NCBI GenBank assembly: GCA_044446225.1
Contig: JBIOER010000001.1
Coordinates: forward strand, 1 to 38,037
DNA: 38,037 nucleotides
Source: Rickettsiales bacterium
GTDB taxonomy: Bacteria; Pseudomonadota; Alphaproteobacteria; Rickettsiales; Midichloriaceae
Direction of reading: 5' to 3'
Part shown: one piece after another, positions 9,577-26,775 of the stretch
How positions within the stretch are numbered: the stretch's first letter is position 1
Layout of the letters: each line of letters begins with the position of its first letter
Notes under the pieces: generated by a model
The model's database searches: none
Told to the model about the DNA's origin: nothing
What the model saw: the letters and a program-made list of their open reading frames with translations, nothing else
Made by a program: the position numbers and the translations under genes

Positions 9577-10368
9577 TCAACCAGCAAGCATAACCGCAGA
9601 CATTTGACAGCCGAATATCGCTTTCTTTTCATGCGTGCTTCTGCGGAAGCTGAAGTACTTTTCAGGCTGCGAATACGTGTCCTCACCTACGTCAGAAATG
9701 TTAAGCAATCCCGAAGTTGCAAGCCTTCGCGCGCAATAACCGGGAAGGTCAAACATGTAACGACCCTCATTGACTGAATCGATAAAAAGACTAGCGTTGG
9801 CAGGAGATTGGTCTAAAAACTGATCGCGAAAGTTTGCATCCACTTCGTATGATTTTTGGCCAATTGTTGGGCCAATCGTCGCGTGAATGTTCTTTTTGTC
9901 CGCTCCCAACACTACCATTGCCGCAATAGTATTTTCAATAATCCCGGCAATCGCTCCTTTCCAACCCGCATGGCACGCACCAATTACTTTGGCGTGATTG
10001 TCCTCAAATACTATCGGGCAACAGTCCCCTGTAATAACTCCCAGCACAATATTTGGTAAAGTTGTAACTAGACCATCAGCTTCTATTTCATCGGTTATCA
10101 TATCCGCCGCAGTAATATGCACCACCTTATTAGTGTGGTTTTGATCAAGGTGTTTTACTGGCAATCGCTGATCGCCAAAATGCGCGGCCACTATCCGTAA
10201 GTTTTGCTGGTAGTCTTCAAAATTATCGCCCAATCCTTTCTTTCTCATAAAGGCTAAACTTGCGTACTCACCTTTGCTCACGCCGCCATTTCTAGTAAAG
10301 AAGTTTTTCTTAATTTGCATATAAACCATTTTACCAGAGATTATACTATCTCTTCTTCTCATTTTCAA
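9577..10368 (-). CDS. pgeF: Peptidoglycan editing factor PgeF / YfiH (laccase-domain, DUF152) protein
   Basis: Motifs HTNKVVHIT, ADGLVT, GVITGDCCPIVF and GACHAGWKG are present. The real start is more likely the ATG at 10329 or 10320 (MVYMQIKK / MQIKK), which would avoid a 23-nt overlap with the upstream gene. Confidence 0.88.
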   Translation of the reverse strand: MKMRRRDSIISGKMVYMQIKKNFFTRNGGVSKGEYASLAFMRKKGLGDNFEDYQQNLRIVAAHFGDQRLPVKHLDQNHTNKVVHITAADMITDEIEADGLVTTLPNIVLGVITGDCCPIVFEDNHAKVIGACHAGWKGAIAGIIENTIAAMVVLGADKKNIHATIGPTIGQKSYEVDANFRDQFLDQSPANASLFIDSVNEGRYMFDLPGYCARRLATSGLLNISDVGEDTYSQPEKYFSFRRSTHEKKAIFGCQMSAVMLAG

Positions 10369-12631
10369 TCACAGCTTTTTTGGCCTCTTCTTCTAACTCT
10401 CTCTTCACTTTGTCAAGCTGTTGAAGCGCACTACCACTAGTGCTAATGTGCGACTCATCTCCCTCCATCATCGCGCTTCCTGCCTGAGCAATCCCTTGTG
10501 CAGTTTTAGTCACCGTATCCAGCCCAGATTTCTTCAACGCATCATAGCCAGTTCCAATAAAGTTCACCCGCTTCATCGCGGTCGCGAAACGTCCGCCAGA
10601 TGCATAATCTGCAGTGTGAGAACCTAAATCAGCGGCTGCAGATACCGTTCCTCTAGCCTGATATGCCGAATCAATTAAAGCTTTATACGCACCACTTGCC
10701 ATACCTGATACCGGCCTAAATTGCGATTTGCTTAACGCATCAATGATTGGTGGAATTTCCGTCATCACCATTTCAAAGATGAGGGAAACAATTAGAAATC
10801 CTACGACATTGGCAACATTTATCGTGCTTTCCAAAGCTCCTAAGTCGTACGGATACCAAAAATTAAAATCCCAAAAATTGAATACATTAGGGGCCGGTGC
10901 AAAGAATGAGAATATGTATTCCCAGCATACTTGGTAAGAGAATAGGTTTTCAATTTGATTTAATAGCAAAGTTACCATTAGCGCCAATAACGCATTGACG
11001 GATATAATCATCATACCGCTGGCAATTAACAGATTCATCCAATTCTCAAATAGTTTTTTGGTGAATTGGAAAAGTATCATAATGATAAATAGAGGAGCAA
11101 TCACAATCAGCAGCGCGAGCAACATAATTGATGTCAGGTAAATCAACAAAGCTCTTAACATCCCTAAGAAAATCAACCCCATACACACCCAAAAAATTGG
11201 TATGAGATAAAAATACTTTGTAAACAATAGCCCAATAACTTTGGCGTTGAGCTGAGTCGAAATTAACAGATTTAAAATCACATCAAATACCGCCAACGCA
11301 TTAGAATTCGGTGGCAATGCAAATAGTGGTGAATTAGGATCACCACCATAAAAAAGTGTGGCGTTAAGAATAACCGTTCCAATATACTGCGCTCCAGGAC
11401 CAACGAAACTAAAAAGGTACGTATTAAAAAAAGTAAAGCTGCTGGGCGATATCACTATTAGGACAATAGAAATTTTAAAGAGCCGAGTAATAAGCTCCCC
11501 TTGGGTAATATTTAGGTTACCCATCATAAACATAAGCGCAGTCATCACTATATATAGAAGCACTGTTGCTCTAACTATATTTATAAAACCAAACTGCTGA
11601 GTGATGTTCACATATAGAGCTTGCGTTACGCTTTCTAGCTGTGATTGGAAAGCCTCCACCGTACGTTCAATCATTCCCATTCCAGTATAGGAACCCGAGG
11701 TTATGGTAATATTATACCCTCCAGTATTATCTTGATAATACGAATCAAGGATTTTAAAATATAATATTCCCTGAGGCACATATGGCTGGCCAGACGCATC
11801 TGTATCCGTGATGCAAGTAAAGCCAGTTGCCCCAGCAGATTGGTCTACATAACATTGTTGGGTAGATGCTATTTGAGCAGAGCACGTCCCATCCGCGTTC
11901 TGTGTGAGAGGCACGTTAAATGTTCTAAAATCTATAGACGGTGGAAACATTGAGGTCTGTGCATTTGCGTTGGGGTCAGCAAACGTTCCATTGTTGTTTA
12001 GCGCAATTAATCCGTACAAACCGTATCCATTACAAGGATTTGAGCAAGCCGCACCTAGCTGAGCATTTGATGCGCAACCTGCTGAAATTTTACACGGAAG
12101 ATTGGTCAAATTAGTACCACCAACATTTAAAGTTAGCCCCTGACCGGACATACACGCCGAATTGTTCGCCAGAGGATCCGAGTTAGGTTGGCAAGCTTGA
12201 AATATACATTCTTTGTAGGAGCTAATTGAATCTGAAGTGGTAGTGCCGGAAGTCAACTGCTGTATACTAGACTCCGAAAAAATTTGTAAAGGCGCCCATG
12301 CACCGGAAACAGTAAGTGTTAGTACGTTTCGCAGTGGCGTGCAGTTTGTTGCACCACTTGGGCAAACCTGAGTTTGTCCGGCACCATAGGTATGGATATT
12401 GGTGTTCAGCCACTTTACTACCTGACTTTGAAAAGGGGTACTCTGCATTAAAGAATTTGTCGGCATCTGGTTCGGATTAGAACATACTGTGACCGATCCA
12501 ACATAGCCAAAAGCGTCTGACGCAATACAGTTATTTGAATCAGCTGGCGTACAGCTGGTTGGACTGACAGCGTAACTTACTACAGGCCAACTAGATAACA
12601 ATAGTACTAATAATATTTTCTTTAACATCAC
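10346..12631 (-). CDS. virB6: VirB6-like T4SS inner-membrane protein, paralog 5 (761 aa) with a roughly 340-aa N-terminal Cys-rich domain
   Basis: Last gene of the virB3-virB4 operon. Signal peptide MMLKKILLVLLLSSWPVVSYA. The polytopic hydrophobic block starts at IVRATVLLYIVMTALMF and contains FFNTYLFSF, which is shared with 12628..15390. The ATG at 12628 overlaps the upstream stop (TGATG). Confidence 0.72.
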   Translation of the reverse strand: MMLKKILLVLLLSSWPVVSYAVSPTSCTPADSNNCIASDAFGYVGSVTVCSNPNQMPTNSLMQSTPFQSQVVKWLNTNIHTYGAGQTQVCPSGATNCTPLRNVLTLTVSGAWAPLQIFSESSIQQLTSGTTTSDSISSYKECIFQACQPNSDPLANNSACMSGQGLTLNVGGTNLTNLPCKISAGCASNAQLGAACSNPCNGYGLYGLIALNNNGTFADPNANAQTSMFPPSIDFRTFNVPLTQNADGTCSAQIASTQQCYVDQSAGATGFTCITDTDASGQPYVPQGILYFKILDSYYQDNTGGYNITITSGSYTGMGMIERTVEAFQSQLESVTQALYVNITQQFGFINIVRATVLLYIVMTALMFMMGNLNITQGELITRLFKISIVLIVISPSSFTFFNTYLFSFVGPGAQYIGTVILNATLFYGGDPNSPLFALPPNSNALAVFDVILNLLISTQLNAKVIGLLFTKYFYLIPIFWVCMGLIFLGMLRALLIYLTSIMLLALLIVIAPLFIIMILFQFTKKLFENWMNLLIASGMMIISVNALLALMVTLLLNQIENLFSYQVCWEYIFSFFAPAPNVFNFWDFNFWYPYDLGALESTINVANVVGFLIVSLIFEMVMTEIPPIIDALSKSQFRPVSGMASGAYKALIDSAYQARGTVSAAADLGSHTADYASGGRFATAMKRVNFIGTGYDALKKSGLDTVTKTAQGIAQAGSAMMEGDESHISTSGSALQQLDKVKRELEEEAKKAVIENEKKR

Positions 12632-15390
12632 GGTTTCAGGTTCCTCGCTTTTCTCTTATCTTGTGCATTTTTCTCCCACTTACCTTCTGTCGCTTGAGAT
12701 ATAAACATAGAGTCTTTCATCGCCCGAGAATGCTGCTGGACCTCTTTGGATCTGCCAGTAACAAAGCCGGCGGTATCAGATAGTCCGGTTAGTGGTTTTG
12801 CATAGCTACTGATATTACCAAAAGCACCTAAGTCAACACCACTGTTAAACCCAAATCCAATCAGTTGGTTAGTAAGTGAAATCATAAACGGAACAAAAAC
12901 GTACATTGCTTGTGAAATAATCAAAAGATAGAAAACTGAAGCATAGGTGAATAATGGACCAACTATAGCTCCATCTGTCCCCACTGGCAAATGCAGTGAA
13001 TACAAAGTTTGGAACAGCGAGAGCACACATAAATTTATTATCGGTGGGACATATAGTTTTATATAGCACGCATTGCAAACAGTAAACCCTAATACTATTT
13101 CTAAGCCCAAGAGTAATAAAGACGCAAACATACCAACTGCCAAAACTATGAACACCGGTTGCAAAGCAACCGTAACCAATTGCTCGAGCCAACTAATAAA
13201 TAACTTGCGCGTATAATCAAACAACGCAAAAGAAATAAATATCGGCGCCAGCAACAATAAGAACCCCATAATAACTAGAGACATCGTGTAGATAAGCATC
13301 GCCTTGAATATCGTGTAAGCGTAGGTGACACCTGAAATAAATATCGCAATCGCGATAAAATACCCCATGTAAGTGGAAACGCAAAGCGCCAGGAGTTTTA
13401 TCCAAGTAACCTTTGAAAAGATCATTGTTAACGGCGCAGCAAAGACATTAAAGACCATATCCGGCGTAGCTAGAATTGCTGCTTCCTGAGTCGAACTAAC
13501 ATTAAACTGGGTGTAATTTACCATTTTGGCCATTAAATCCACCCCTCCTTGTATATAAAACGAGAATAAATAGGTGTTAAAAAATGCCCAACTATTGGGC
13601 GAAAGCAATGCTATGACTATACCAATAAAGAAGATTCTCTTTAAGCCATCTTTTTGTGTAATCTGTGCGATACCCATGACATAACTAAGACCGGTAAACG
13701 CAATGTATAAAGTCAAAAGCGCTCTTACTATTTTCATAAAGTTACTATCGGCAACCAGCGAATTAAACAAATTCTGTACCACTCCAGGATTAGTGCCACT
13801 ACCATAGAAATAAGTTCTTACCACGCCAATTTCTGTTGTAATTGGGGTAAATAAATTACTACCTTGTGCCGGGAGCTTTGTAACTTGGAGCGTATATGCA
13901 CCTCCTTGATTACCAATTCCATAGATATTTTTTACATTCGCCACACTTGAAGCGCAAATAGGATCAAGTGGGTTACATGTAGGCAGCACATTGCCAGGAG
14001 TAGTGAGCGGCGCATTAACCCTCATAAAAACTACGCCGGCACTTTGCGCCGTAACTTGAGCAACATTCTGTAACTGCTGGGTGCTTATGTCTATCCAATC
14101 GGAAGCTTTAGGAACAGCACCAGGAGCAGCAATTGCATATTGCAAAAATTCCCCATTATAATATGGGCATCCGTATCGAGTAATTGATACTATCGCCCCA
14201 CCTAAATTATCCGCCCAATTAGTTGCAGGACCAAGATCGTAATGGGTAATACCTAGTCGAGTAAAATTACTTGGCGCAAACCCATTTAATATCCCAGCGA
14301 ATGTAACACTTTTTTTACCAATCACATCACAAGTATTGGAAGGGTCATATTCAGTTGCAGCCGTTCCGTTCAAGCCATTCCACGTAATACTTGCATTAGC
14401 CGCTTGAGCTGCTTGAATAGTAACAACTGCGTCAGTGTTACAAACTGTTGTACCTTGAGAGTTTTTAAATGGAGATCCATTCACCTCAATGGTTGGAAAT
14501 TGCAATTGATCTCCCGGCAAATAAGACTGTGAATTATTATAGGATGAAAGATTACCCCAAATGCTATAATTAGCTGGGTAAATTATTAACCTGGGATCTT
14601 GAGTTCCGTAAGGTGGAGAAGATGGTATCGGAGTATATGGAGCGCTAATTAAATCCGTCACATAACTAATACTAAGAAAATCTCCATCTTTAACATCGAT
14701 ACTAGTATCAGTGGGCAAATAATTTCTCGCACTCCAAGACCCGCTACTAGAGTTCATCGCGTGCCATGAATTATTACCTGACCAAGCAGCGTTATTTTCA
14801 CCTGCAAAAACTGGATAGATAGTAACGCTATTATAGCCGCATGTATAAATAACTCCTTGACCTACCCCGCTAACGCTATTGCTACTAAAATTATTAAAGG
14901 TAAGCGAATCCCCTACTGCTACTGAAAGTGATGTCTCATAGGCATTATAAACAGCGGCTGATGAATTGGTGGGGTCTGTAGAGCATGCAATTTGTATCGG
15001 CCCTGGTGAATTAGCAGTTGTGACTGACCCACCTGAAGAACCTATATTAATGCTGCTTGGGTTGTAAAGCTGCCCCTGCTCACAAGCTCTGGTACAAGCC
15101 GAAATAATTGGCGCATTAAGTTCAAAACCCGCTGTTACTCCTGAAAGCCTAGAGTACTGTCCACACTCGTTGGTACAAATTTGCGTACACTGCTTACCTA
15201 CTGGACCAATGTTGAAACTATCTTGATCTAGATCCCCCAGCTGATAACCGTAAATGCATTCTGTATATAAGCCAATCGGAGAATACTGAGTGCCACCCGA
15301 TTGCGCTGCCGCTACCATTTGCGCTTGCGCTTGCGAAGCAAAAAACACCGCTAATACCAATACACCAGTGATAAGGATTTTCTTCATCAC
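12628..15390 (-). CDS. virB6: VirB6-like T4SS inner-membrane protein, paralog 4 (920 aa) with a roughly 550-aa N-terminal Cys-rich domain
   Basis: Signal peptide MMKKILITGVLVLAVFFASQAQA. The N-domain is paralogous to that of 23698..26775. The polytopic block runs IVRALLTLYIAFTGLSY...FFNTYLFSF... The start is coupled to the upstream stop (GGGGGTGATG). Confidence 0.75.
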   Translation of the reverse strand: MMKKILITGVLVLAVFFASQAQAQMVAAAQSGGTQYSPIGLYTECIYGYQLGDLDQDSFNIGPVGKQCTQICTNECGQYSRLSGVTAGFELNAPIISACTRACEQGQLYNPSSINIGSSGGSVTTANSPGPIQIACSTDPTNSSAAVYNAYETSLSVAVGDSLTFNNFSSNSVSGVGQGVIYTCGYNSVTIYPVFAGENNAAWSGNNSWHAMNSSSGSWSARNYLPTDTSIDVKDGDFLSISYVTDLISAPYTPIPSSPPYGTQDPRLIIYPANYSIWGNLSSYNNSQSYLPGDQLQFPTIEVNGSPFKNSQGTTVCNTDAVVTIQAAQAANASITWNGLNGTAATEYDPSNTCDVIGKKSVTFAGILNGFAPSNFTRLGITHYDLGPATNWADNLGGAIVSITRYGCPYYNGEFLQYAIAAPGAVPKASDWIDISTQQLQNVAQVTAQSAGVVFMRVNAPLTTPGNVLPTCNPLDPICASSVANVKNIYGIGNQGGAYTLQVTKLPAQGSNLFTPITTEIGVVRTYFYGSGTNPGVVQNLFNSLVADSNFMKIVRALLTLYIAFTGLSYVMGIAQITQKDGLKRIFFIGIVIALLSPNSWAFFNTYLFSFYIQGGVDLMAKMVNYTQFNVSSTQEAAILATPDMVFNVFAAPLTMIFSKVTWIKLLALCVSTYMGYFIAIAIFISGVTYAYTIFKAMLIYTMSLVIMGFLLLLAPIFISFALFDYTRKLFISWLEQLVTVALQPVFIVLAVGMFASLLLLGLEIVLGFTVCNACYIKLYVPPIINLCVLSLFQTLYSLHLPVGTDGAIVGPLFTYASVFYLLIISQAMYVFVPFMISLTNQLIGFGFNSGVDLGAFGNISSYAKPLTGLSDTAGFVTGRSKEVQQHSRAMKDSMFISQATEGKWEKNAQDKRKARNLKP

Positions 15391-18068
15391 CCCCTCACCA
15401 TATTAGCAGCAGCTTTACCTGCCGTAGCGGCAGCACTAGCGGCAGTACTAGCAGCCACTTTAGTAGCTGAAATCGCTGAAGATGCAGTAGCCGATGAGCC
15501 AGCACCCAACATGCCACCGAAGCTTGAACTAATATTTCCCAAATCTTTCACACCAACTAACTGCGACATAAACGTTATTATTTTATCTAAAAATAAGTAG
15601 AAAAGAAATGCAAACAACATTATCTGTAACATCGGCAGCCACAAGGCGTTTGCCGCCGTGTTGATTAAATAAGGCACTGAAAATAAGCCCCCTATGTCTA
15701 AATATGCTATAAAGCTAGTCGTTAAATTTGATACGGCAGTGGTACAAGGATTGACAAAATTTGTGCCACCTACGCTATACAATGATGAAACGGTGCAAAA
15801 CATTGAATTGCTGCCTTGGCATATGGTCGACAATTGGTTAAGCGCCCCAGTATCGTTAAGCTTGAGACTCGAAAGGCTCATACTGCCATAGTAAATAGCA
15901 TCAAATGTTGAAAGCATCAGCGTAATAAAAGCAAAAAGTAGTCCTGGCAATAGTATATATCCCAGCAACATTCTACACCACTCATTAAACATTTGCTTGG
16001 TCGGTTCAAATAACCAGAGAACAAAAAATATTGGCGATATAAAGACCATTATAGTAATTGCAAACAACACCAGGATAAACACATTGGTATATCTAAAGAA
16101 AGTGATCAAGATAAACATCGTGTAAATTATACAACAAACTCCAAAAATTATCCCTGTACCTCCGCTCCATAAAGACGCCAGGGGCATCCAAATGGCAAAC
16201 ATGCCGGTAATAGAAAAATTACAAGTACCAAAATTCAAATAGTTGGCAATTTTACAATCAATTAAATCCCATACCGTTACCAGTATATTAGTGTTAGGTG
16301 TTCCTATAGTTACGGTTGGCACCAGCGGTGAAGCTGCCGGGATTTGTTGATCGGTAAAGATATTGGCATTGTTATATTCATACTGACAGAATTGGAATGG
16401 ATCGTTAATGTTTTGCGCTTGCACAAACAGACTGACAATTTCTTGGCTTGCTGCAATTAATGCTGGATACATACCCGATGGCTGCCCTGCGACTGTGTTA
16501 TACCATGCGTTGCCAAGCGTGAAGTAACTTACGATACCAAACTTAACTGCATACATTATCCATTCGTGGCGTTTTGGCGGCTCAGCCGAAGTAATAATTT
16601 TCATCCCTACTAACGCTATGTATAGTGTAAGCGCGGCTAAAATAGCTTGCTTTAAATTCTGCTGAATATTTTCAAAGAAGGTGGTGGTTTGACCAGTCAT
16701 CGGTTGCATGAAAATTTTGTTTAGCATGTCTTCAATGCACCCGACGATGGTTGAAGTGAAATGCATGTCACTTAACAAAAACTTTACAACTGGAGCATTG
16801 GGCGATTTAAAAGAATTACCCAGCGATGCTAAATCTGTTCGCGGCTGTGTAATATATATACAACGCGTATTTTGCACAAATGCTAATAAGAATGGATCAA
16901 TAGCTACTATACTTGTTGGAGCAGCAACTGTGGTGCAACCTAAGAGTACTGGAAGCAATGTAAATGGTTGCGCAGCACACAATTGAATTTGTCCATTCGC
17001 AGGATCTTGCCGGTAATAAGCATAAGCATCTATCGCCCCCCAAGGACCATTGGCATGCACATATTCGCCGGGATATAGAGTGATATCGGCATACCTATTA
17101 AACTCACACGTCTTCGGTGCCGTCGGATAAGCACTACTTATCTGGAGATTAGTTAAGATTGAACCTATAAACTGCGTTCCGGCGAGCATATCCCTTAGAT
17201 ATTGCGACATATACCCTATTTCAATCGTCGCGACATTACACTCCAAATAGCCCTGTAAGCCCGTAGCCGTACTCCCGCACCAGCCTTGGCTAGCATTATT
17301 ACCTGTAGTGCTTGCCGCACCAGGATTACTTGTCGCCTGAGTGGCAGCGAGCGCAACCATATTCTGGCATGGCTCAGTATTAGCTCCCATATAGCCCCAA
17401 GTATAACCGAAATATGAACTTGTTTGATCAACTTCTGCTCCCCACCACCCACTAGTTTGATAAGTGGGATCCCAACCTGGATCGCAGTGGAAAATCCATG
17501 GCACAGTATTACTGGTCAGTACATTGGTATTAAGGTTGCAAGTTGAATTAGACAAGGTTCCGTAGGTTAAGGTGCCATTAGAATTACAGCACGCTGATCC
17601 ATCCCCTTGTATATACCCCAAATATTTACTGACGCGCTCTGCGGCCGTATAGGCAAAAGCACCGCTGCAATAATCTACCATTGTTGCATATTCAGCAGCA
17701 GCATAAACCACTGCACCAATACCAAATGTAAATGCTCCGATTAAACCAGCTGCCATCGCATTATCAATTTGAACCAATACAATCTCAGGCACCAACATAC
17801 CTGTGTAGTTAACGTTGGCGTTAGCTCCTTTTCCTAACGTTGGTGGAATACTGGTGTTATTAAAGTCTAGGTAGTTGGCAATTTTGCCCGTAGTAAAACA
17901 GTTGTCGTAACCGCTATTGGTGCCCAAATGATTTTGCTCATATTGCAACAGCGAATTCGTAGATCCTGTGGAAGTTGCCGCATCAGAGTTATTAGCGTAA
18001 GCAAACAACAGGCAAATCCCTACTACCAGATAAACAAAAGGATATTTCTGTTTATACGCTTGCTTCAC
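15387..18068 (-). CDS. virB6: VirB6-like T4SS inner-membrane protein, paralog 3 (893 aa)
   Basis: Full-length paralog of 18068..20926 (YEQNHLG..YDNCF, AEYATMVDYCSGAFAYTAAERV, PPKRHEWIMYAVKF, LWLFEPTKQMFNEW). It has a signal peptide, a polytopic C-terminal half and an Ala/Ser-rich tail. The GTG start overlaps the upstream TAG by 1 nt, after GGAGGAAGG. Confidence 0.75.
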   Translation of the reverse strand: MKQAYKQKYPFVYLVVGICLLFAYANNSDAATSTGSTNSLLQYEQNHLGTNSGYDNCFTTGKIANYLDFNNTSIPPTLGKGANANVNYTGMLVPEIVLVQIDNAMAAGLIGAFTFGIGAVVYAAAEYATMVDYCSGAFAYTAAERVSKYLGYIQGDGSACCNSNGTLTYGTLSNSTCNLNTNVLTSNTVPWIFHCDPGWDPTYQTSGWWGAEVDQTSSYFGYTWGYMGANTEPCQNMVALAATQATSNPGAASTTGNNASQGWCGSTATGLQGYLECNVATIEIGYMSQYLRDMLAGTQFIGSILTNLQISSAYPTAPKTCEFNRYADITLYPGEYVHANGPWGAIDAYAYYRQDPANGQIQLCAAQPFTLLPVLLGCTTVAAPTSIVAIDPFLLAFVQNTRCIYITQPRTDLASLGNSFKSPNAPVVKFLLSDMHFTSTIVGCIEDMLNKIFMQPMTGQTTTFFENIQQNLKQAILAALTLYIALVGMKIITSAEPPKRHEWIMYAVKFGIVSYFTLGNAWYNTVAGQPSGMYPALIAASQEIVSLFVQAQNINDPFQFCQYEYNNANIFTDQQIPAASPLVPTVTIGTPNTNILVTVWDLIDCKIANYLNFGTCNFSITGMFAIWMPLASLWSGGTGIIFGVCCIIYTMFILITFFRYTNVFILVLFAITIMVFISPIFFVLWLFEPTKQMFNEWCRMLLGYILLPGLLFAFITLMLSTFDAIYYGSMSLSSLKLNDTGALNQLSTICQGSNSMFCTVSSLYSVGGTNFVNPCTTAVSNLTTSFIAYLDIGGLFSVPYLINTAANALWLPMLQIMLFAFLFYLFLDKIITFMSQLVGVKDLGNISSSFGGMLGAGSSATASSAISATKVAASTAASAAATAGKAAANMVRG

Positions 18069-20926
18069 TATACCTTCCTCCCAATATAACTTGCTGCTGC
18101 ACCTACAGCTTGCCCGGTGCCCCTCATCGTCATCCCTGCGCTTTGCATGCCCATTTTTGTTCCCAGTTTAGCCCCACCCTTAGCTGCTGTCGCAGCTGCC
18201 TTAGGCGCTGCCATGATAGCTCCAATACCTTTACTCATTGAACCTACATTTGAGACGCTAGTTAATATGCTCATAAACTCGGTGATTTTGTCTAAGAATA
18301 GATAGAACAGGAATGAAAACAACATCAACTTCAACATCTCCATCCACAATAAGTTAGTAACACTTTGATTAAGAACTCTTATACTGAATAACTTACCTAT
18401 TGGCTGCTTGGTCGTTATATTGTCAATGAGCATGCCAATTGGCGTGGCACAAGTGTTGACAAAGTTGTTGTGCACGCTTTGAATCGCACAGTATATCGAA
18501 TCCACACCCTTACAAAGTTGGGCGAGTTGTCCGGATGCCCCACTAACTGAAGTCAAGCTAGCATAATCTACCACTCCAGTGGTAGCACCTGCTGGAATGT
18601 TAAGATAGCCATAAAATATTGAATCAAAAGTCGCCAGCATAATGGCAACGAAAGCAAATAGGAGCCCGGGCATTAATATGTATCCCAAAATCATTTGCGC
18701 CCATTTTTGGAACATCTGCTTGGTCGGCTCAAACAACCAAAAGGCAAAGAATAAAGGTGATAGCAATACTAATAGCGTGATGGTAAACATCGCCAGAATA
18801 AATATGTGCGTGTACCTTACAACTGTAATCAAAGTAAAGAACACATATATTAATGTTGATATAGCAAATACTGCACCGAATGCTCCGCTAAATAATGCCG
18901 CAAAAGGCAGCCAAACTCCAAGCATTCCCGATACGGAATAATTGCATGACCCAAGATTCAAATAATTAATTAGTTTGCAATCAACCAGGTCCCATACCGT
19001 TACAACCACACCTTGTGCTCCAATTGTATTGGTCAATGTCCCTGCTGAAGAATATATCCGATCTGCAAATATATCGTTTCCTTGATAGAGATAAGAGCAA
19101 AACTGTAATGGGTCATTTACATTTTGTGCTTCCATAAACAAACTCGCCATCTCTTGGCTAGCGCTGATAAGCCCTGGATACAACCCAGTCACCACTCCTG
19201 CATTAACACTATACCACCCTTGACCAACGGCAAAATAGATTACTACTGCAAATTTCACCGCATACATTACCCACTCATGGCGCTTGGGCGGCTCAGGCGA
19301 ACTCATTATTTTAATACCAATTAATGCTATAGCTAGCGTCATCGCAGCCATTAGCATCTGATTTAAATTCTGCTGAATTTCTTGAAAGAATGGCGTTGGT
19401 CCAAACCCGGTAGGGTTTACGAACAACTGCAACAACATATCTTGAATACAACCAACTACAGTCGACGTTAAATGCATTTCACTTTTTAAAAATTTCGCAA
19501 CCGGGTGGAAAGCACCGGCGGTCTGGCTCAGGGAATTGCCTAAAGACTGGAGATCCGTTCTTTCGCTCATTAGATATTCACACCGGGTATTCGCAACAAA
19601 GGTGAGAAGATACGCATCAATATTTGCAATATCTCGCGGCGGCGCAATACTCGTACATCCTAGTATTACCGGCATTAAGGTAAGGGGGTTAGCGGCGCAA
19701 AGTTGCGTGTTCCCAGACGTCGGGTCAATTCGGTAATAAGCATAAGCGGCTATTGGCCCGCAAGTTCCTCCACCAACTACTAAATCTCCTGGGTGGAGAA
19801 CTACATCCGAGTATTGGCTAAACTCACATAATTTTGGAGGAGCCGTCCCAGTCGCCGTTGTAATAGAACCTAGGTCAATACCCTTAAGACCAGCCGCCAA
19901 ACTGTCCAAACCCACCCTCAGTGTTTGTGAATAATAACCAATCTCAATAGTTGCCGTGTTACATTCTAAGTAACCTAACAACCCTTTATCAGGCGCTCCC
20001 GAGCAAGACGCAAAACTTGAAGCATTACTATAACAGCCGCCGTATTGAGGCTCACCTGCATAAGCGCTATATTGCATCATGGTTTGGCAATACTCAGAAT
20101 TTTCTCCCATATAGCCCCAAGTAAATCCTATTAGTGACGCATTATTGGTCATAGCGCCCCAATTTGCACCACCAACCACTACCCCTGCACCTCCTGTATA
20201 GCTAGTTCCCACACCAATTGCTGCACCGCCACCCCCACTATCACCGCCACCAGCAGAGCCACCACCCCCTGCACTACTGCTGCCGCCAGTTGTACCACTT
20301 GCAGAACCTGAGCCACTCGCACTTCCAGATGCAGAGCTTCCGTCAACAGAAATGTTTCCACTTGCAGAGCCACCAGCACCTACACCTGCGCTTTCTCCAC
20401 CACCCTGAAATGTTGGATCCCACGCAGGATTGCAGTGCCCGATCCAAGGCACATCGGTATCTCCAAGCAGAGGTACCGAAGTAGCAGCATTTACATATTG
20501 CACCCCACCAATATTTTGACAAGTACCGCCATTACCTTGGAGCAACCCTAAATATTTATTTACACGTTCGGAAGCGGAATAGGCGAACGAACCGCTACAA
20601 TAGTCCACCATTGCTGCATACTCAGCGGCAAGGTAGAGCGGCATTACAACCACGAGCACTGACTGCGCAACTATCGCGGCCACTGCGCTTGCAACTGCAG
20701 GAGCGGCTGTTACAGCTTGATTAGCTCCAATTGTTCCCGATAACGCAGTATTGTTAAAATCGGAAATTACAGCAATTTTATTGGTCGAGAAACAATCATC
20801 ATAGCCTGCACCTATCCCGCCTAAGTGAGCTTGTTCATAAGTTTTCAAAGAGTTCGCAGTAGCCGCATAGACGTCACTACTATACGCGCATATTGATAAC
20901 AAAACTGCAAAGATAAGGCGGATCAT
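18068..20926 (-). CDS. virB6: VirB6-like T4SS inner-membrane protein, paralog 2 (952 aa) with a Gly/Ser-rich insertion
   Basis: ATGA overlap with the virB4 stop. Signal peptide MIRLIFAVLLSICAYSSDVYA. A Cys-rich region is followed by a polytopic block (PPKRHEWVMYAVKF, FWLFEPTKQMFQKW). Confidence 0.75.
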   Translation of the reverse strand: MIRLIFAVLLSICAYSSDVYAATANSLKTYEQAHLGGIGAGYDDCFSTNKIAVISDFNNTALSGTIGANQAVTAAPAVASAVAAIVAQSVLVVVMPLYLAAEYAAMVDYCSGSFAYSASERVNKYLGLLQGNGGTCQNIGGVQYVNAATSVPLLGDTDVPWIGHCNPAWDPTFQGGGESAGVGAGGSASGNISVDGSSASGSASGSGSASGTTGGSSSAGGGGSAGGGDSGGGGAAIGVGTSYTGGAGVVVGGANWGAMTNNASLIGFTWGYMGENSEYCQTMMQYSAYAGEPQYGGCYSNASSFASCSGAPDKGLLGYLECNTATIEIGYYSQTLRVGLDSLAAGLKGIDLGSITTATGTAPPKLCEFSQYSDVVLHPGDLVVGGGTCGPIAAYAYYRIDPTSGNTQLCAANPLTLMPVILGCTSIAPPRDIANIDAYLLTFVANTRCEYLMSERTDLQSLGNSLSQTAGAFHPVAKFLKSEMHLTSTVVGCIQDMLLQLFVNPTGFGPTPFFQEIQQNLNQMLMAAMTLAIALIGIKIMSSPEPPKRHEWVMYAVKFAVVIYFAVGQGWYSVNAGVVTGLYPGLISASQEMASLFMEAQNVNDPLQFCSYLYQGNDIFADRIYSSAGTLTNTIGAQGVVVTVWDLVDCKLINYLNLGSCNYSVSGMLGVWLPFAALFSGAFGAVFAISTLIYVFFTLITVVRYTHIFILAMFTITLLVLLSPLFFAFWLFEPTKQMFQKWAQMILGYILMPGLLFAFVAIMLATFDSIFYGYLNIPAGATTGVVDYASLTSVSGASGQLAQLCKGVDSIYCAIQSVHNNFVNTCATPIGMLIDNITTKQPIGKLFSIRVLNQSVTNLLWMEMLKLMLFSFLFYLFLDKITEFMSILTSVSNVGSMSKGIGAIMAAPKAAATAAKGGAKLGTKMGMQSAGMTMRGTGQAVGAAASYIGRKV
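20168..20404 (-). repeat. Low-complexity Gly/Ser/Ala-coding tract inside VirB6-like paralog 2
   Basis: Encodes GGGESAGVGAGGSASGNISVDGSSASGSASGSGSASGTTGGSSSAGGGGSAGGGDSGGGGAAIGVG... (aa ~175-253). It is absent from the paralog at 15387..18068, which has 16 aa between WDPT.Q and G(Y/F)TWGYMG. Confidence 0.9.
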
Positions 20927-23340: not shown

Positions 23341-23346
23341 TTATAC

Positions 23347-23640
23347 CTAATAGGGGTCATATGAGTTAGCCCCGTGAAATATTTTATTAGCCGATCTATT
23401 GCACAGCTGATTTCTAATCATAAACAACTCTATAAACAGCGGTTCTTTTGAGCAAAGATAATATCCAAAAAAATGGATTGGAACCCCTAGAGCAAGATAT
23501 GAGAATTTACTCGTCATAATATAGGCAATAAAGCATGCCATGGTATTGATCATGAAATAAGGCATACTAACCCCAAATAACAACGCTGGCCTTGTCAACC
23601 CTACGAATAATGGATCAGCTCCTACTTGTCCTTCTGCCAT
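23347..23640 (-). CDS. virB3: Type IV secretion protein VirB3
   Basis: 97 aa with DPLFVGLTRPALLFGVSMPYFMINTMACFIAY, followed by a second TM segment. GGAG lies 7 nt before the ATG. The gene sits immediately upstream of virB4. Confidence 0.9.
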   Translation of the reverse strand: MAEGQVGADPLFVGLTRPALLFGVSMPYFMINTMACFIAYIMTSKFSYLALGVPIHFFGYYLCSKEPLFIELFMIRNQLCNRSANKIFHGANSYDPY

Positions 23641-23697
23641 ATTTTATCTCCTGCCTTTAAAGTTTATATCTAGCATATTATATTCCACAAGCTTTAA

Positions 23698-26600
23698 TTA
23701 AACTCTTGTTTTCCCTGTTATTCCTTTCTTAAACGGCTTATACGCTGTTTGATATGCAAGCCTTGGCGCATACATCACAGCACCTACAGGTTTGACAGCC
23801 CCGACGCGTACTGTATTTGCTACCCCGCCAATTGCGGTAGACCTTGCAGCCGATCCATAATTGGCGATGCTCATGGTTCTGGCCGTTAAGTCACCCGTTA
23901 CTATTCCAGTTATCATACCTGGTATATAATCTACAAATTCACTCGCCGCATGGGCAACCATCAGCAATATTACGGAAAGGAAAATCATGCTAACAGCTGT
24001 AAATGGAGCGCTATAGGACACATCCACGCCAACTGGCATATTCATATTTTGTAGGAAAGTGAAACCCTGCAAAATACACTGATTAATCACCCCAGGAATT
24101 GCGATATCTACCAAGCAAACTTCGCAGGCGCTAAATGCAAGCGCCTCGATCAGAATTAAGCTGAATAACAAACTAAAAATCACCACACCTAAAAATACAG
24201 CGACTGGTTGGATAGCAAAGCTAATTAAATTTTTCCACCAAGAATCAAATAAATACTTAGTCTGTTTATAGAGTGCGAAAGGTATAAAGATCGGCGATAC
24301 AACCATCAGCATGGCAATAATAATCATCGACATAAGATACATAAGAACCGCCTTAGTTATAGCCCACGCAAAAAAGCCCGTTGCAATGAGGATGACAATC
24401 GCTAACCATGCTCCAAAAACACCGCTGAAAAACAATGTGGCGATTTTAATCCAGAACGGTGCGCTCGCTAATTGAGCGACTGCCGCATCAAAAACTGAGA
24501 AAATAAGGGTTGGGTCTTGCTGAAGTTGCGCTTCAGTAAAGCCCGTCGCGTTATTCATAGAAACCGAACCCGAAACAAAGTCCGCAATCAACGTCGTTAC
24601 TCCGGTGGTAAAGAATGGGAAGAAATATGTGTTAATTAAAGTCCAACTCTGATCAGATATCAGCGCCACGACAGCCCCAACCGTTAAAGCTCTCATAACC
24701 GCTTCATGTTGGGTCATATGTATTGCACCTGTCATAAACCCAAGCCCTAAGAATGCAAAATACAGTGCCAAGAAAGCTCTGATTATGTTTTTAACATAGG
24801 ACTCCTCAATAAAACTAACATAGAGAACTTGGACAATCCCTTGCTGCGCTTGGATATTCGACGCGGTTGGATTACCAAATAGAACTTGCTCCACATATCT
24901 TACGAGCTCTCTAAACGGACCATTCTCAACTAAAAAGGCCGACTGGGTATTGTCGTTAACCGCAACTACATACTGACCATATTGATTTCCCGGCGCATAC
25001 AAAGCCGCAAGATTTGGATCTGAGCTTCCAGAAGGCACCGTATAATTAGACGCGATTCTAAACAATAGCATCCCTCCGGGAGCGGGAATATTTAGTGTAG
25101 TTGACTGGTTCAAAACAGCTACCGGGACAGCAGCCCAAGTTAGAGTTGCCGCTTGTATTGCAGTAAACCTATTGGCGGGTGAATCGCTGGAATTATCATA
25201 ATTGGGCAGTACAGCATATTGCAAACCTGAATTGGCATTTGTAGTATTAAGTGTTTGCGGGCACCCACCATAGTAAATAGCGACGGTATATCCCCCTAAA
25301 TTATCTGACCAGTATTTAATATCGGTTGCTATATCACTGGTCGAAACGTCCCAATGCCTGATTGCCAAAGGCGTTTTCGTGCTTGAAAAACCACTTAAAG
25401 CCCCGGTAAAAGTATATGACCCAAGACCGGGATTACTTACGGAATTACAAGTGTTAAAATTCATTGCTTGCTTAGTTGGCGTGTTACAACTTGAAGACGT
25501 TGTATTCGTTGTGTAAACTATATTCAGGTCTTGAAAACTCCCTGCTAATCCATAAATACTATAGGCCGGCGTTGCCGACGGTGTGGGCGGAGTTACCTGT
25601 AATCCCAAATTTTTAATGGTGTATGGCGCTACTCGCGCATCTTCACCATAGATTGTTTTCGGCAACGCATTAGTACCATACGGATCATTAGAATCACCTG
25701 GGGCAAGCAATTGCAAACCACTGTTTTGCCGCCACCAATTGGTGGCAGTTGCTATATCCGCCGCCGCATTACTTGGGTTCATTAGAAAATTAAAAGCAAA
25801 GGCTCTATCGGTGCCCGGTGGATTAACAATCGGCGTTGTTCCCAAAAGCGACCACGGAAAAGCCGCGTTTGAACCTTCCCAGGCAAAATCTCCACTCCAT
25901 GAGATCGAAAGCTCATCCCCATCTTGTATATAGATCCCAGTGTTTGTGAATTGAGGATTTCTTGAATTCCACATGCACAGACTATCCATGGGAAATAAGG
26001 TATTGGTAGTAAAATCAGTTATTAGTGGACCAGTAAGGTTTTGCAATTGCGCATAACTTAAGCCGGCATAGTTCCATAATTGCTGATTTGAGAGGCCTTG
26101 GACTTGCGTTTGCGACAATGGATTGTTTGCCAGCAAACACGAATGCTGGCCTGGTTGCCATAATGTTTGTGGCGCTGTTTGGTTAGTCCAGTCATTTGTG
26201 TTTATGCTAGAAATCAATGGCACCATTTCCAGAAATTTTTGTCCACACATATAAACAGTACTATCTAATCCATTCCCAATTGGGTATATGGAAACTTGAT
26301 CTCCAGTCTGCGTAGTTATTCCAGTCCATATGGCATTATAGTTGGCGGAATCTTGTGTTTGGCCAGTGTTGGGGTCACAGCTCACCGTATTTATTATCGG
26401 CCCGACAAAGAGGATGTCAGACGTGGTACTCCCAGCGGGGGCTTGATCCTGCCTTACATAGTAAGACATATTGTTACTTCCGGTTTGGCAATCAGATAAA
26501 CACTGCAAAATAACGTCCGCATTGAGCTCGGTGCCATTGGCAACAGTTGTGCGTGATAGCCCAACATTTGGCTGGAATTGCGTAGCGGTAATCTGAATGC

Positions 26601-26775
26601 CGCATTGTTGTGCACATAACTGCTGGCATGATGATCCTATGGGGGTGACGGTCACTGCAGTTCTGGTATTGCCCGACCAATCGGTGCTGAGGATACAGTT
26701 AGAATAAGGATTCCACCCAAAAGCTGGGTTTGAAAAAAGCAACATCACTAGAAGGACTAAAGCCCTTACCATCAC
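23698..26775 (-). CDS. virB6: VirB6-like T4SS inner-membrane protein, paralog 1 (1025 aa) with a roughly 660-aa N-terminal Cys-rich domain, located upstream of virB3
   Basis: Signal peptide MMVRALVLLVMLLFSNPAFG. The N-domain is paralogous to 12628..15390. The polytopic block runs IIRAFLALYFAFLGLGF...LINTYFFPFF... Start is the GTG at 26775 or the ATG at 26772. Confidence 0.72.
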   Translation of the reverse strand: MMVRALVLLVMLLFSNPAFGWNPYSNCILSTDWSGNTRTAVTVTPIGSSCQQLCAQQCGIQITATQFQPNVGLSRTTVANGTELNADVILQCLSDCQTGSNNMSYYVRQDQAPAGSTTSDILFVGPIINTVSCDPNTGQTQDSANYNAIWTGITTQTGDQVSIYPIGNGLDSTVYMCGQKFLEMVPLISSINTNDWTNQTAPQTLWQPGQHSCLLANNPLSQTQVQGLSNQQLWNYAGLSYAQLQNLTGPLITDFTTNTLFPMDSLCMWNSRNPQFTNTGIYIQDGDELSISWSGDFAWEGSNAAFPWSLLGTTPIVNPPGTDRAFAFNFLMNPSNAAADIATATNWWRQNSGLQLLAPGDSNDPYGTNALPKTIYGEDARVAPYTIKNLGLQVTPPTPSATPAYSIYGLAGSFQDLNIVYTTNTTSSSCNTPTKQAMNFNTCNSVSNPGLGSYTFTGALSGFSSTKTPLAIRHWDVSTSDIATDIKYWSDNLGGYTVAIYYGGCPQTLNTTNANSGLQYAVLPNYDNSSDSPANRFTAIQAATLTWAAVPVAVLNQSTTLNIPAPGGMLLFRIASNYTVPSGSSDPNLAALYAPGNQYGQYVVAVNDNTQSAFLVENGPFRELVRYVEQVLFGNPTASNIQAQQGIVQVLYVSFIEESYVKNIIRAFLALYFAFLGLGFMTGAIHMTQHEAVMRALTVGAVVALISDQSWTLINTYFFPFFTTGVTTLIADFVSGSVSMNNATGFTEAQLQQDPTLIFSVFDAAVAQLASAPFWIKIATLFFSGVFGAWLAIVILIATGFFAWAITKAVLMYLMSMIIIAMLMVVSPIFIPFALYKQTKYLFDSWWKNLISFAIQPVAVFLGVVIFSLLFSLILIEALAFSACEVCLVDIAIPGVINQCILQGFTFLQNMNMPVGVDVSYSAPFTAVSMIFLSVILLMVAHAASEFVDYIPGMITGIVTGDLTARTMSIANYGSAARSTAIGGVANTVRVGAVKPVGAVMYAPRLAYQTAYKPFKKGITGKTRV

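Follow-up and report, generated by a model that had tools for sequence, protein, structure and literature searches.

VirB6 paralogues vary more than any other component of rvh (Rickettsiales-type) type IV secretion systems (T4SS) (PMC2653234). In Rickettsia (RvhB6a-e) and in Anaplasma, Ehrlichia and Wolbachia (VirB6-1 to VirB6-4) several divergent paralogues are found in tandem after virB3-virB4, and it is known in general terms that RvhB6 is flanked by large extensions. Extended VirB6 proteins were reported to be surface exposed in Anaplasma and other Rickettsiales, for C-terminal extensions or repeats (PMC7648143). Rickettsial VirB6 carries a loop motif, P-x7-[FY]-x2-T-x6-W, with an essential Trp (PMC10732058, PMC2653234). 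It is acknowledged as an open question what the multiple oversized VirB6 paralogues do in the T4SS shared by Rickettsia, Anaplasma, Wolbachia and related bacteria, and how these machines assemble a stalk or pilus without VirB5; rvh systems lack VirB5, and assembly of the Wolbachia pili was described as unresolved (bioRxiv 10.1101/2025.08.29.673095). Extra periplasmic collar and wing densities of the Wolbachia rvh machines were attributed to gene-family expansions, and VirB1 and VirB7 homologues are missing from some rvh systems (bioRxiv 10.1101/2025.08.29.673095).

In R388 VirB6 (TrwI), helices alpha1 and alpha2 alone lie in the membrane and the rest forms a periplasmic pentamer beneath VirB5 (PMC9259494; PMC12857230). 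Minimal VirB6 proteins (R388 TrwI, A. tumefaciens VirB6) have a short periplasmic N-terminus, with a separate VirB5 pentamer on top (PMC9259494). Extended VirB6 proteins were defined by at least five hydrophobic helices and a large central or C-proximal hydrophilic domain (PMC12857230). DotA, the VirB6 homologue of the Legionella Dot/Icm system, combines a signal peptide and TM1/TM2 with an extended domain of 530 residues, which contains five disulfides and adopts a unique fold; in the periplasm, this domain builds the pentameric protochannel that locks onto IcmX (bioRxiv 10.1101/2025.06.23.660953).

The rvh operon and its VirB6 paralogues

The window (the whole stretch of 38,037 nt that was analysed) contains, on its minus strand, a chromosomal rvh operon of a Midichloriaceae-like intracellular bacterium, flanked by housekeeping genes, in the order VirB6(1025 aa)-VirB3-VirB4-VirB6(952)-VirB6(893)-VirB6(920)-VirB6(761) (Table 1). 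The 1025-aa VirB6 gene is the first of the operon, with virB3 57 nt downstream. Tandem divergent VirB6 genes thus surround virB3-virB4 in the rvh manner, four downstream and one upstream, with gene overlaps of 1-4 nt. VirB4 is 64-70% identical to its Midichloriaceae/Jidaibacter homologues and at most 44% identical to non-Rickettsiales matches; its nearest sequences place the origin of the operon in the Rickettsiales. No second VirB4 and no VirB8, VirB9 or VirB5 gene lies within the 38-kb window, which covers only part of the genome, and no promoter or terminator signal rose above the shuffled background around the 1025-aa VirB6 gene.

Table 1. Features of the rvh operon and of its VirB6 proteins, in window coordinates
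Feature	Coordinates	Strand	Basis
Family I clade B VirB6 of the extended RvhB6 type, 1025 aa	23698..26775	-	ORF, Pfam TrbL 61.3 bits, NJ tree
Signal-peptide-like leader, aa 1-20 (MMVRALVLLVMLLFSNPAFG↓W)	26716..26775	-	predicted from sequence features
Cysteine-stapled helical hairpin, aa 27-99	26479..26697	-	Cys conservation and AF2 helices
First beta-sandwich D1, aa 100-190, invariant C133 and C177	26206..26478	-	AF2 strands 103-184, pLDDT 83-94
Variable, partly helical insertion, aa 191-268	25972..26205	-	gap in the alignment row of the 920-aa paralogue
Central beta-sandwich, aa 269-508, split by a helical insertion of ~100 aa	25252..25971	-	column frequencies and Foldseek span
Distal beta region (aa 509-656, including a pair of linker helices) ahead of VirB6 helix alpha1	24808..25251	-	AF2 model
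VirB6/TrbL core, aa 657-960	23896..24807	-	Pfam TrbL over residues 670-875 and Foldseek
C-terminal tail, short and basic, aa 961-1025, with the stop codon	23698..23895	-	sequence; pLDDT <50 at 987-1025
VirB3, 97 aa	23347..23640	-	Pfam VirB3, 81.7 bits
VirB4 ATPase, 805 aa	20923..23340	-	Pfam CagE_TrbE_VirB, 175 bits
Tandem pair of family II VirB6 paralogues (952 aa, 893 aa)	15387..20926	-	Pfam, gene order
Family I clade A VirB6, 920 aa	12628..15390	-	354 bits to family HMM, alignment, NJ tree
N-domain of the 920-aa VirB6, aa 24-548	13747..15321	-	alignment with the 1025-aa protein
Family III VirB6, 761 aa	10346..12631	-	Pfam TrbL/VirB6 51.8 bits
15-Cys N-region (~325 aa) of the 761-aa VirB6	11597..12568	-	sequence

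Three of the ORFs (1025, 920 and 761 aa) had been singled out in the original prediction as VirB6-like, and all three exceed the gathering cutoff (25.9 bits) of Pfam PF04610 (TrbL/VirB6; 60.5 bits for the 920-aa protein, the other two in Table 1). The estimate of roughly 660, 550 and 340 aa ahead of the VirB6 block was close, its first hydrophobic helix beginning at residues 664, 554 and 352, respectively. The tails after the last hydrophobic segment are short (84, 80 and 137 aa) and the extensions are N-terminal, as proposed. At 760-1025 aa, the proteins are 3-4 times the size of A. tumefaciens VirB6. They share with RvhB6 the large hydrophilic regions beside the VirB6 block, the conserved alpha1 motif and the P-x7-[FY]-x2-T-x6-W loop, but differ in that the extension is almost wholly N-terminal, whereas Anaplasma VirB6-3 and VirB6-4 have huge C-terminal repeats (PMC7648143).

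The core of the 1025-aa protein comprises alpha1/alpha2, long hydrophobic helices, a beta-hairpin (residues 883-907) bearing the conserved C884, C887 and C900, and the motif P828-x7-Y-x2-T839-x6-W846. Across 65 sequences, P828, T839 and W846 do not vary, and at least 90% of them have F at position 836, where the 1025-aa protein has Y. The full-length AlphaFold (AF2) model (pLDDT 82.5, pTM 0.71) was matched by Foldseek to R388 TrwI/VirB6 (7o3v_G, 8rtd_L, 8rt9_F) with E 6e-5 to 3e-4, probability 1.00 and TM 0.59-0.61 on target. The core fold and the position beside VirB3/VirB4 are shared with R388 TrwI and A. tumefaciens VirB6.

Within the rvh-type VirB6 subunits, the 1025- and 920-aa proteins form an old pair of paralogues. 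Common to both are a signal peptide-like leader and an N-domain of 530-640 aa directly ahead of the VirB6 helices. Their N-domains align end to end (BLASTP 1e-67 over residues 269-951, 2e-11 over residues 24-197), with the four motif pairs by which the paralogy was first recognised in register. The 920-aa gene is the conserved "second gene after VirB4" copy, and Midichloriaceae genomes keep the order VirB4 - family II - family I - family III; in a departure from the RvhB6 layout, one family I copy lies upstream of virB3 or, in other genomes, is a solo gene. The family II pair is 50% identical and has an N-region different from that of family I; a relationship between the two was rejected (profile-profile probability 7%, from the signal peptide only). 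The 761-aa protein had been described as carrying a shorter version of the family I domain, which was not upheld: BLASTP with this protein recovered the VirB6 block only, the family I HMM scored 12 bits, at the DNxGGY strand, and profile-profile comparison of its N-region with family I gave a probability of 45-65%, which is only suggestive of a relationship.

A domain family at the N-terminus of VirB6

An N-domain-only profile, used in an exhaustive HMMER search of 1.84 billion proteins, retrieved 158 representatives at E≤1e-3, 70 of them at E≤1e-30, and the likeness is therefore far beyond chance. Among the 150 best of these 158 matches, the VirB6 block follows directly after the N-domain in 127, and the remaining 23 are short fragments (134-606 aa). 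Wherever the sequence is complete, the N-domain is fused to the N-terminal end of VirB6 helix alpha1. The names among 30 matches looked up were of Midichloriaceae or unclassified Rickettsiales only, and the domain was not detected (<7 bits) in Xenolissoclinum, the sole Anaplasmataceae locus compared. To speak of a module "grafted" onto the channel subunit, as was done at the outset, is misleading, since the N-domain is old and vertically conserved in two Midichloriaceae-type VirB6 paralogue lineages. A word-indexed protein search, whether with the N-domain, its 20-sequence profile or the VirB6 core, yielded no more than the query, a single homologue or a single fragment; these results are false negatives because the exhaustive search finds the family. 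Likewise, when 185,579 species genomes were scanned by pattern for the N-domain, no match came up, a failure of the method, because VirB4-anchored loci in the same genomes encode the domain.

No Pfam or NCBIfam entry matched the N-domain, PDB sequence and profile searches gave no match of significance, and Foldseek against PDB and viral structures gave nothing at E≤0.001. The initial statement that no known fold is recognisable stood after the AlphaFold and Foldseek check, with no strong match to a described domain, and no result placed these regions in the cytoplasm. While the protein is of a known kind, the domain family that it carries is undescribed. A weak PDB sequence match to the VirB7 N0 domain of Xanthomonas (E 0.5-0.8) disappeared with a deeper profile and was dismissed as chance; double-jelly-roll capsids (PRD1, Sputnik, mavirus) reached a Foldseek probability of at most 0.06, a generic beta-sandwich likeness only.

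The fold of the N-domain in AlphaFold models is confident and mostly beta (pLDDT 76.1 and pTM 0.77 when modelled alone). The leader of the 1025-aa protein has a best 10-residue hydrophobic window of KD 3.39, with an Arg ahead of it. In the hairpin that follows, the cysteines are C27, C50-x3-C54-x3-C58 (helix 48-59) and, within helix 86-98, C92-x3-C96, conserved in 98-100% of 65 sequences; both helices are taken from the AF2 model. The insertion between the two beta-sandwiches is without counterpart in the 920-aa paralogue, has low pLDDT at 240-260 and bears an optional Cys pair (C213/C267), both present in about 47% of sequences. The most conserved motifs of the central sandwich are W269-A-R-N273, T279-G, D285-G-D287-E-L-S-I, H474-x-D476, D491-N492-x-G494-G495 and G504-C505. 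In the distal region, AF2 strands span 518-608 and helices 620-633 and 647-656, and the conserved residues are W547, G568, R573, G600, Y602 and G646. An internal duplication of two beta regions was rejected (hhalign probability <1%).

Predicted location and lectin likeness

The N-termini of all three proteins look like signal peptides, as originally predicted: a basic n-region is followed by a hydrophobic h-region, and positions -3/-1 are occupied by small residues (AFG↓W, AQA↓Q, SYA↓V). A hydrophobic h-region lies upstream of the CX3CX3C motif in 57/65 homologues. From these features, and for export also from the known topology of VirB6, cleavage of the leader and export of the N-domain would be expected. 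The long N-domains had been called Cys-rich; their Cys content is modest (13 residues, about 2%), but nine of the 13 are invariant or nearly so in 65 homologues, including the CX3CX3C...CX3C helix pair, and the conserved cysteines are probably paired in disulfides. The N-domain is acidic (39 D+E versus 20 K+R). Because of the conserved cysteines (in the N-domain and in the VirB6 hairpin), this acidity and the attachment to alpha1, the N-end of which is periplasmic in R388 VirB6, the N-domains almost certainly lie on the periplasmic side.

The N-domain is tethered to an inner-membrane helix about 5 residues past the last linker helix, and would therefore be found at the inner-membrane face unless cleaved. 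Cleavage from the VirB6 core, giving a separate periplasmic or secreted protein such as a VirB5 stand-in at the base or tip of the pilus, would suit the building of pili by Wolbachia without VirB5 (bioRxiv 10.1101/2025.08.29.673095), and pLDDT dips to about 74-79 over residues 631-660, in the linker that joins alpha1 to the last beta strand. It is nevertheless very doubtful: no stand-alone N-domain was found, the 23 matches without a VirB6 block among the best 150 of 158 being fragments; no protease-site-like motif is conserved except the LFG/GVVQ linker, which is helical in the model; and the fold is beta-rich, whereas VirB5 is helical. Just as doubtful is an anchor to the cell wall or envelope, in which the beta-sandwich modules, by binding peptidoglycan or a different glycan of the periplasm, would hold the inner-membrane complex in place or at a distance within the envelope. 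The jelly-roll/lectin-like fold, the probable location at the inner-membrane face and the lack of VirB1 and VirB7 homologues in some rvh systems (bioRxiv 10.1101/2025.08.29.673095) agree with such an anchor, but the argument is purely inferential and no match to known peptidoglycan-binding domains (LysM, SPOR, OmpA-like, SLT) was obtained in Pfam or PDB.

The best structural match of the N-domain (Foldseek, PDB) was to the EclA-N/PllA lectin (E 0.065, probability 0.91, TM 0.61 on target), over 233 aligned columns fitting the aa 269-508 span. PA-IL/LecA lectins are also small beta-sandwiches, and their T-x-I-x-x-x-G-D-x-I-x-I and D-N-S-G-x-F-x-V-x-V motifs are resembled by T-G-I-x-x-x-D-G-D-x-L-x-I and D-N-x-G-G-Y-x-V-x-I in the N-domain. 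The match needs a 100-residue insertion, its E of 0.065 is not significant, and the Ca/sugar ligands are partly conserved: at the positions aligned, weakly, to LecA D100, N107 and N108, D476 is D in 57% of 65 sequences, 491 is D in 51% and N in 18%, and N492 is conserved in 74%. Comparison with the LecA family by hhalign gave a probability of 40-50%, collinear after removal of the insertion. In a control, the lectin profile scored as well on D1 (51%, E 1.5e-4) as on the central region (50%, E 1.7e-4), and the reversed control was low; since D1 is an unrelated sub-domain, the sequence-profile signal was considered unspecific and was not counted. Pfam PA-IL (PF07828) did not match the N-domain at E≤10, nor did LecA-family chains appear in PDB profile searches at E≤10. 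On the model, the central beta-sandwich (aa 269-508) is tentatively described as LecA/PA-IL-like.

This lectin match (E 0.065, with an unspecific motif) is the sole adhesin-like hint for the host-facing modules first envisaged, in which the N-domain would reach the surface, for instance on a growing stalk or pilus, and bind host glycans or proteins. A PA-IL/LecA-type galactose lectin (EclA-N, PllA) as nearest structural neighbour speaks for this proposal, as do the residues aligned with Ca/sugar ligands (D476, D/N491, N492; 57-74% of 65 sequences), the fast evolution of the VirB6 paralogues (43-58% identity between the window and L001, versus 89% for VirB4) and the reported presence of extended VirB6 on the surface of Anaplasma and other Rickettsiales (PMC7648143). 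However, the 65-kDa domain, already folded and disulfide-bonded, would need to pass the outer membrane while tethered within a few residues to alpha1. Between the window and L001, divergence of the VirB6 core is nearly as fast as that of the N-domain, and fast evolution is therefore not specific to an exposed part; the published surface-exposure data concern C-terminal repeats; and the lectin match is weakened by the D1 control and the Pfam result. A host-facing role is thus regarded as unlikely, and with the inner-membrane tether the early suggestion was not sustained.

Candidate roles and meaning for rvh machines

We consider it somewhat better than even (probability about 0.55) that the N-domain is a Sec-exported, disulfide-stabilised periplasmic add-on to the pentameric VirB6 stalk. 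After export, the N-domain would fold and be oxidised in the periplasm and be held at the inner membrane via alpha1/alpha2, with the VirB6 pentamer, its bulk periplasmic, sitting at the stalk base of the T4SS. The N-domain, in five copies, would surround or cap this pentamer and create a larger stalk or protochannel, in the manner of the disulfide-rich extended domain of DotA. In a system without VirB5, the N-domain may provide contacts to pilin, VirB9/VirB10 or the cell wall that come elsewhere from VirB5 or other parts, and the differing N-domains of co-transcribed paralogues might give alternative or mixed stalks.

DotA shares with these proteins a signal peptide, VirB6-like TM1/TM2 and hydrophobic helices, and a hydrophilic periplasmic domain of about 530 residues with several disulfides (location and disulfides predicted here) and no known fold. 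It differs in that its domain is inserted after TM2, between hydrophobic helices, whereas the family I N-domain precedes alpha1, and in that the partner of DotA is the VirB5-like IcmX, while VirB5 is missing from rvh systems. No sequence likeness to the DotA extended domain was detected; full-length Foldseek gave 9ngy_FP1 at E 0.75 and probability 0.14, and this entry was absent from the N-domain search. The position of the DotA domain after TM2, this lack of fold likeness and the surface exposure of extended VirB6 elsewhere (PMC7648143) count against the periplasmic add-on; five 65-kDa N-domains may also clash with the VirB8 arches of R388. The layout is not that of the extended VirB6 definition, the hydrophilic domain being N-proximal and the C-tails 80-137 aa, and the resemblance is one of kind. 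The same applies to F-plasmid TraG-type proteins, which likewise combine a VirB6-like polytopic region with a large hydrophilic domain of unknown role, but in a central or C-proximal position (PMC12857230), and to which no similarity was found.

So far, the domain has been met in no bacteria other than those of Midichloriaceae type, which live as symbionts of hosts such as protists and ticks, and it is not known in pathogens. One VirB6 extension is now defined as a domain family that is discrete and foldable; with its boundaries and invariant residues set out and a confident model, it is a concrete object for pentamer modelling, the assignment of cryo-ET densities and tests by domain deletion or binding. 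A bolder and improbable version of the add-on has a pentamer of N-domains capping the VirB6 stalk in the role of the missing VirB5 (pilus nucleation or protochannel), possibly with a Ca-dependent glycan site at the host interface. If true, such a VirB5-replacing pentameric cap would explain how rvh T4SS work without VirB5 and why several VirB6 paralogues are retained.

Operon organization and chromosomal setting

Oversized RvhB6 paralogues are a hallmark of the rvh (Rickettsiales vir homolog) type IV secretion system (T4SS). The minus strand of the window from 10346 to 26775 was occupied by a single tightly packed set of genes (see the table), which overlapped their neighbours by 1-4 nt from virB4 on; all five large proteins passed the Pfam TrbL/VirB6 gathering score. 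The genes flanking the operon were ordinary chromosomal ones (Obg, MetK, TrpRS, Mur ligase, LigA, MiaA and others). Among 185,579 species genomes, the closest VirB4 sequences were those of Midichloriaceae/Jidaibacter (64-70% identity), and matches outside the Rickettsiales reached at most 44%. From the gene set, the housekeeping flanks and the nearest VirB4 sequences, the operon is chromosomal, of rvh type, and belongs to a Midichloriaceae-like bacterium.

VirB4-anchored loci of Midichloriaceae genomes repeated the arrangement VirB4 - family II - family I - family III. Family I comprises the 1025-aa and 920-aa proteins, which share a large N-domain (the region between the leader and VirB6 helix alpha1), family II the 952-aa and 893-aa paralogues, and family III the 761-aa protein. 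The family II genes (15387-20926, minus strand) lie in tandem and their products are 50% identical; a single copy was present in the related contig L001 and in most Midichloriaceae loci, and two in the locus L013. Family II has its own N-region of about 450-520 aa, unrelated to that of family I, and an additional hydrophobic segment around residue 80-120; a Gly/Ser-rich low-complexity insert (about aa 177-255) of the 952-aa copy is missing from the 893-aa copy.

The last VirB6 gene shares its final 23 nt with a same-strand Cu-oxidase_4 (YfiH/PgeF-like) gene (9577-10368, minus strand), which may therefore belong to one transcript with the T4SS genes. Beside the operon, where the GC content of the window is lowest (0.35-0.39), a 1702-aa protein (4355-9463, plus strand) combines DUF4011 and an Upf1-like helicase (AAA_11/AAA_12) with a MTES_1575 nuclease-like domain at its C-terminus. 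Among the candidate defence families of PADLOC, it matched PDC-S37 at 1085 bits and Hhe at 779 bits; the host of this protein and of the T4SS operon looks like an intracellular bacterium. A 281-aa ORF (275-1120, plus strand) had no match in Pfam or PADLOC.

Features of the VirB6 operon and of the 1025-aa family I protein
Feature	Window position (nt)	Strand	Residues (1025-aa protein)	Basis
VirB6-like gene, 1025 aa	23698-26775	-		Pfam TrbL/VirB6
VirB3	23347-23640	-		
VirB4	20923-23340	-		
Four further VirB6-like genes (952, 893, 920, 761 aa)		-		Pfam TrbL/VirB6
Beta-hairpin stretch, family I VirB6 core	23896-24162		872-960	
Helical hairpin with CX3C motifs			48-98	AlphaFold2 model
First beta-sandwich (D1)			100-190	AlphaFold2 model
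Variable insertion, missing in clade A			191-268	AlphaFold2 model
Second beta-sandwich, broken by about 100 helical residues			269-508	AlphaFold2 model
Additional strands			509-610	AlphaFold2 model
Two linker helices leading straight into VirB6 helix alpha1 (660-682)				AlphaFold2 model

Architecture and cysteines of the N-domain

As the original prediction had it, the extensions are N-terminal and the C-terminal tails short: the hydrophobic helices of the VirB6 block begin at residue 664, 554 and 352 of the 1025-, 920- and 761-aa proteins, and 84, 80 and 137 aa follow the last hydrophobic segment. All three proteins begin with what resembles a signal peptide (a basic residue, then a strongly hydrophobic stretch with small residues at -3/-1). 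In the public gene call for the 1025-aa protein (P0001, 1015 aa), the start lies 10 codons further downstream than the GTG/ATG adopted here (26745-26775, minus strand), which would halve the hydrophobic leader; because its homologue P0002 keeps the full leader, the longer start appears more likely.

The two long N-domains are paralogous: their alignment begins at the first conserved Cys and extends as far as the pre-membrane linker, at about 29-32% identity (BLASTP E 1e-67 and 2e-11, two segments), with all four motif pairs quoted for them present and in register. That the 761-aa protein carries a shorter version of this domain is unproven: profile-profile comparison gave a probability of 45-65%, resting on a C-x3-DFG motif after the leader and on the final strand with its linker, and the family I HMM scored 12 bits at the DNxGGY strand, but BLASTP matched the VirB6 block only.

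Conservation was counted in a 65-sequence alignment. C27, C50, C54, C58, C92, C96, C133, C177 and C505 (numbering of the 1025-aa protein) were 98-100% conserved, and W269, N273, D287, G494/G495, G504 and several other residues were also conserved. The CX3CX3C motif was found in 65/65 sequences, with a hydrophobic leader upstream of it in 57, and the Cys pairs 213/267 and 430/443 were each gained or lost together. Three further, nearly invariant cysteines of the VirB6 block (C884, C887 and C900) lie in a beta-hairpin (aa 883-907) between two long helices. Both counts, nine and three, are odd, so the N-domain could be joined to the hairpin loop by a disulfide; the 761-aa protein, which has only a single Cys at the corresponding place and lacks the GGC505 cysteine, fits such a bond without proving it.

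An AlphaFold2 model of the whole 1025-aa protein was obtained from the same alignment (pLDDT 82.5, pTM 0.71); a model of the N-domain alone reached pLDDT 76.1 and pTM 0.77. The modelled fold of the N-domain is confident, beta-rich and apparently new.

Distribution and comparison with known folds

A word-indexed protein search returned one homologue, P0002 (38% identity), whose source contig L001 has the same operon order. The N-domain profile alone was then run exhaustively with HMMER against 1.84 billion cluster representatives and matched 158 proteins at E<=1e-3, of which 70 reached E<=1e-30; the majority measured 850-1200 aa. The VirB6 block directly followed the N-domain in 127 of the 150 best matches, the other 23 being short fragments. 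Release of the N-domain by cleavage finds no support in these data and is improbable, as no stand-alone copies were seen among the best 150 of the 158 matches. Some family I members (P0078, P0086, P0094, P0095, P0105, P0113, P0060 and P0088) reach 1250-1700 aa; in these, insertions of 300-700 residues separate the Cys-hairpin/D1 part from the central sandwich, or sub-domains occur in duplicate. P0088, a single protein, matched the VirB6 core twice. Insertion hot spots seem to lie at the junctions near aa 190 and 300.

In a neighbour-joining tree of 65 full-length proteins, family I fell into two old clades, A (the in-operon copy, including the 920-aa protein) and B (the second copy, including the 1025-aa protein). 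The clade B gene stands alone among housekeeping genes in a complete Midichloriaceae MAG and in GCA_000815465.1, which we take to be Jidaibacter acanthamoeba; among the loci compared, it adjoins virB3 only in the window and L001. Named matches among 30 looked up were Lyticum, Cyrtobacter and a Peranema endosymbiont, with one more in GCA_000815465.1. The three VirB6 proteins of Xenolissoclinum (Anaplasmataceae) scored <7 bits with each of the three N-domain profiles, which is no match. Family I proteins are annotated in public genomes merely as TrbL/VirB6 family proteins, and no description was found in the literature searched of the N-domain as a family in its own right, with a framework of conserved cysteines and a confidently modelled, apparently new beta-rich fold, of its restriction so far to Midichloriaceae-type lineages, or of its split into two old paralogue clades.

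The VirB6 block matched R388 TrwI/VirB6 with a Foldseek probability of 1.0. The absence of a recognizable fold in the N-domain was borne out: there was no match in Pfam and NCBIfam or in PDB sequence-profile searches, and nothing at E<=0.001 by Foldseek against the PDB and viral models. An early VirB7 match (PDB profile, E 0.5) disappeared with a deeper profile. A role as cell-wall anchor is improbable, having no domain-level support.

The top PDB neighbour was the PA-IL/LecA-type lectin domain of EclA and PllA (E 0.065, probability 0.91), with a TM-score of 0.61 on the 119-residue target and 233 aligned columns, consistent with aa 269-508 including the insertion. A lectin profile, made from PDB sequences checked against the LecA sequence, aligned with the WxARN...DGDELSI strands; with the insertion taken out, the alignment was collinear across the whole lectin ('DNxGGYxVxI' vs 'DNSGxFxVxV', probability 40-50%). 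The unrelated D1 sandwich scored as well as the central one (51%; reversed control, 1%), so the sequence signal was rejected as a generic strand-GD-strand motif. What suggests a lectin-like aa 269-508 is thus the non-significant fold match of the model.

Proposed role in the secretion channel

Between the window and L001, VirB4 was 89% identical and each VirB6 paralogue 43-58% (10346-23340), N-domain and membrane core alike; the VirB6 set as a whole evolves several times faster than the VirB4 ATPase. Such fast-evolving paralogues, the weak lectin hint and the surface-exposed C-terminal extensions reported in Anaplasma (PMC7648143) would suit a host-facing adhesin at the cell surface. This is unlikely, if somewhat less so than cleavage or wall anchoring: the VirB6 core diverges nearly as fast as the N-domain, which is tethered to the inner membrane.

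In R388, alpha1 and alpha2 are the only parts of VirB6 that lie in the membrane, alpha1 being a candidate pilin-recruitment helix, and the remainder forms a periplasmic pentamer carrying the VirB5 pentamer (PMC9259494; PMC12857230). The Legionella VirB6 homologue DotA combines a signal peptide and TM1/TM2 with an extended domain of 530 residues, which has a unique fold and five disulfides and forms a periplasmic protochannel beneath IcmX (bioRxiv 10.1101/2025.06.23.660953). The rvh systems lack VirB5, the purpose of their VirB6 expansions has been termed a mystery, and Wolbachia rvh machines show additional periplasmic collar and wing densities (bioRxiv 10.1101/2025.08.29.673095). Taken together, these systems favour, with a probability of about 0.55, the family I N-domain as an oxidised addition to the VirB6 pentamer on the periplasmic side, by which the stalk would be enlarged or capped. 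The N-domain would be exported to the periplasm, where its disulfides would form, and be arranged as a pentamer with VirB6; it might also play a VirB5-like role. Paralogue-specific versions of the N-domain may then give rise to alternative or mixed assemblies.
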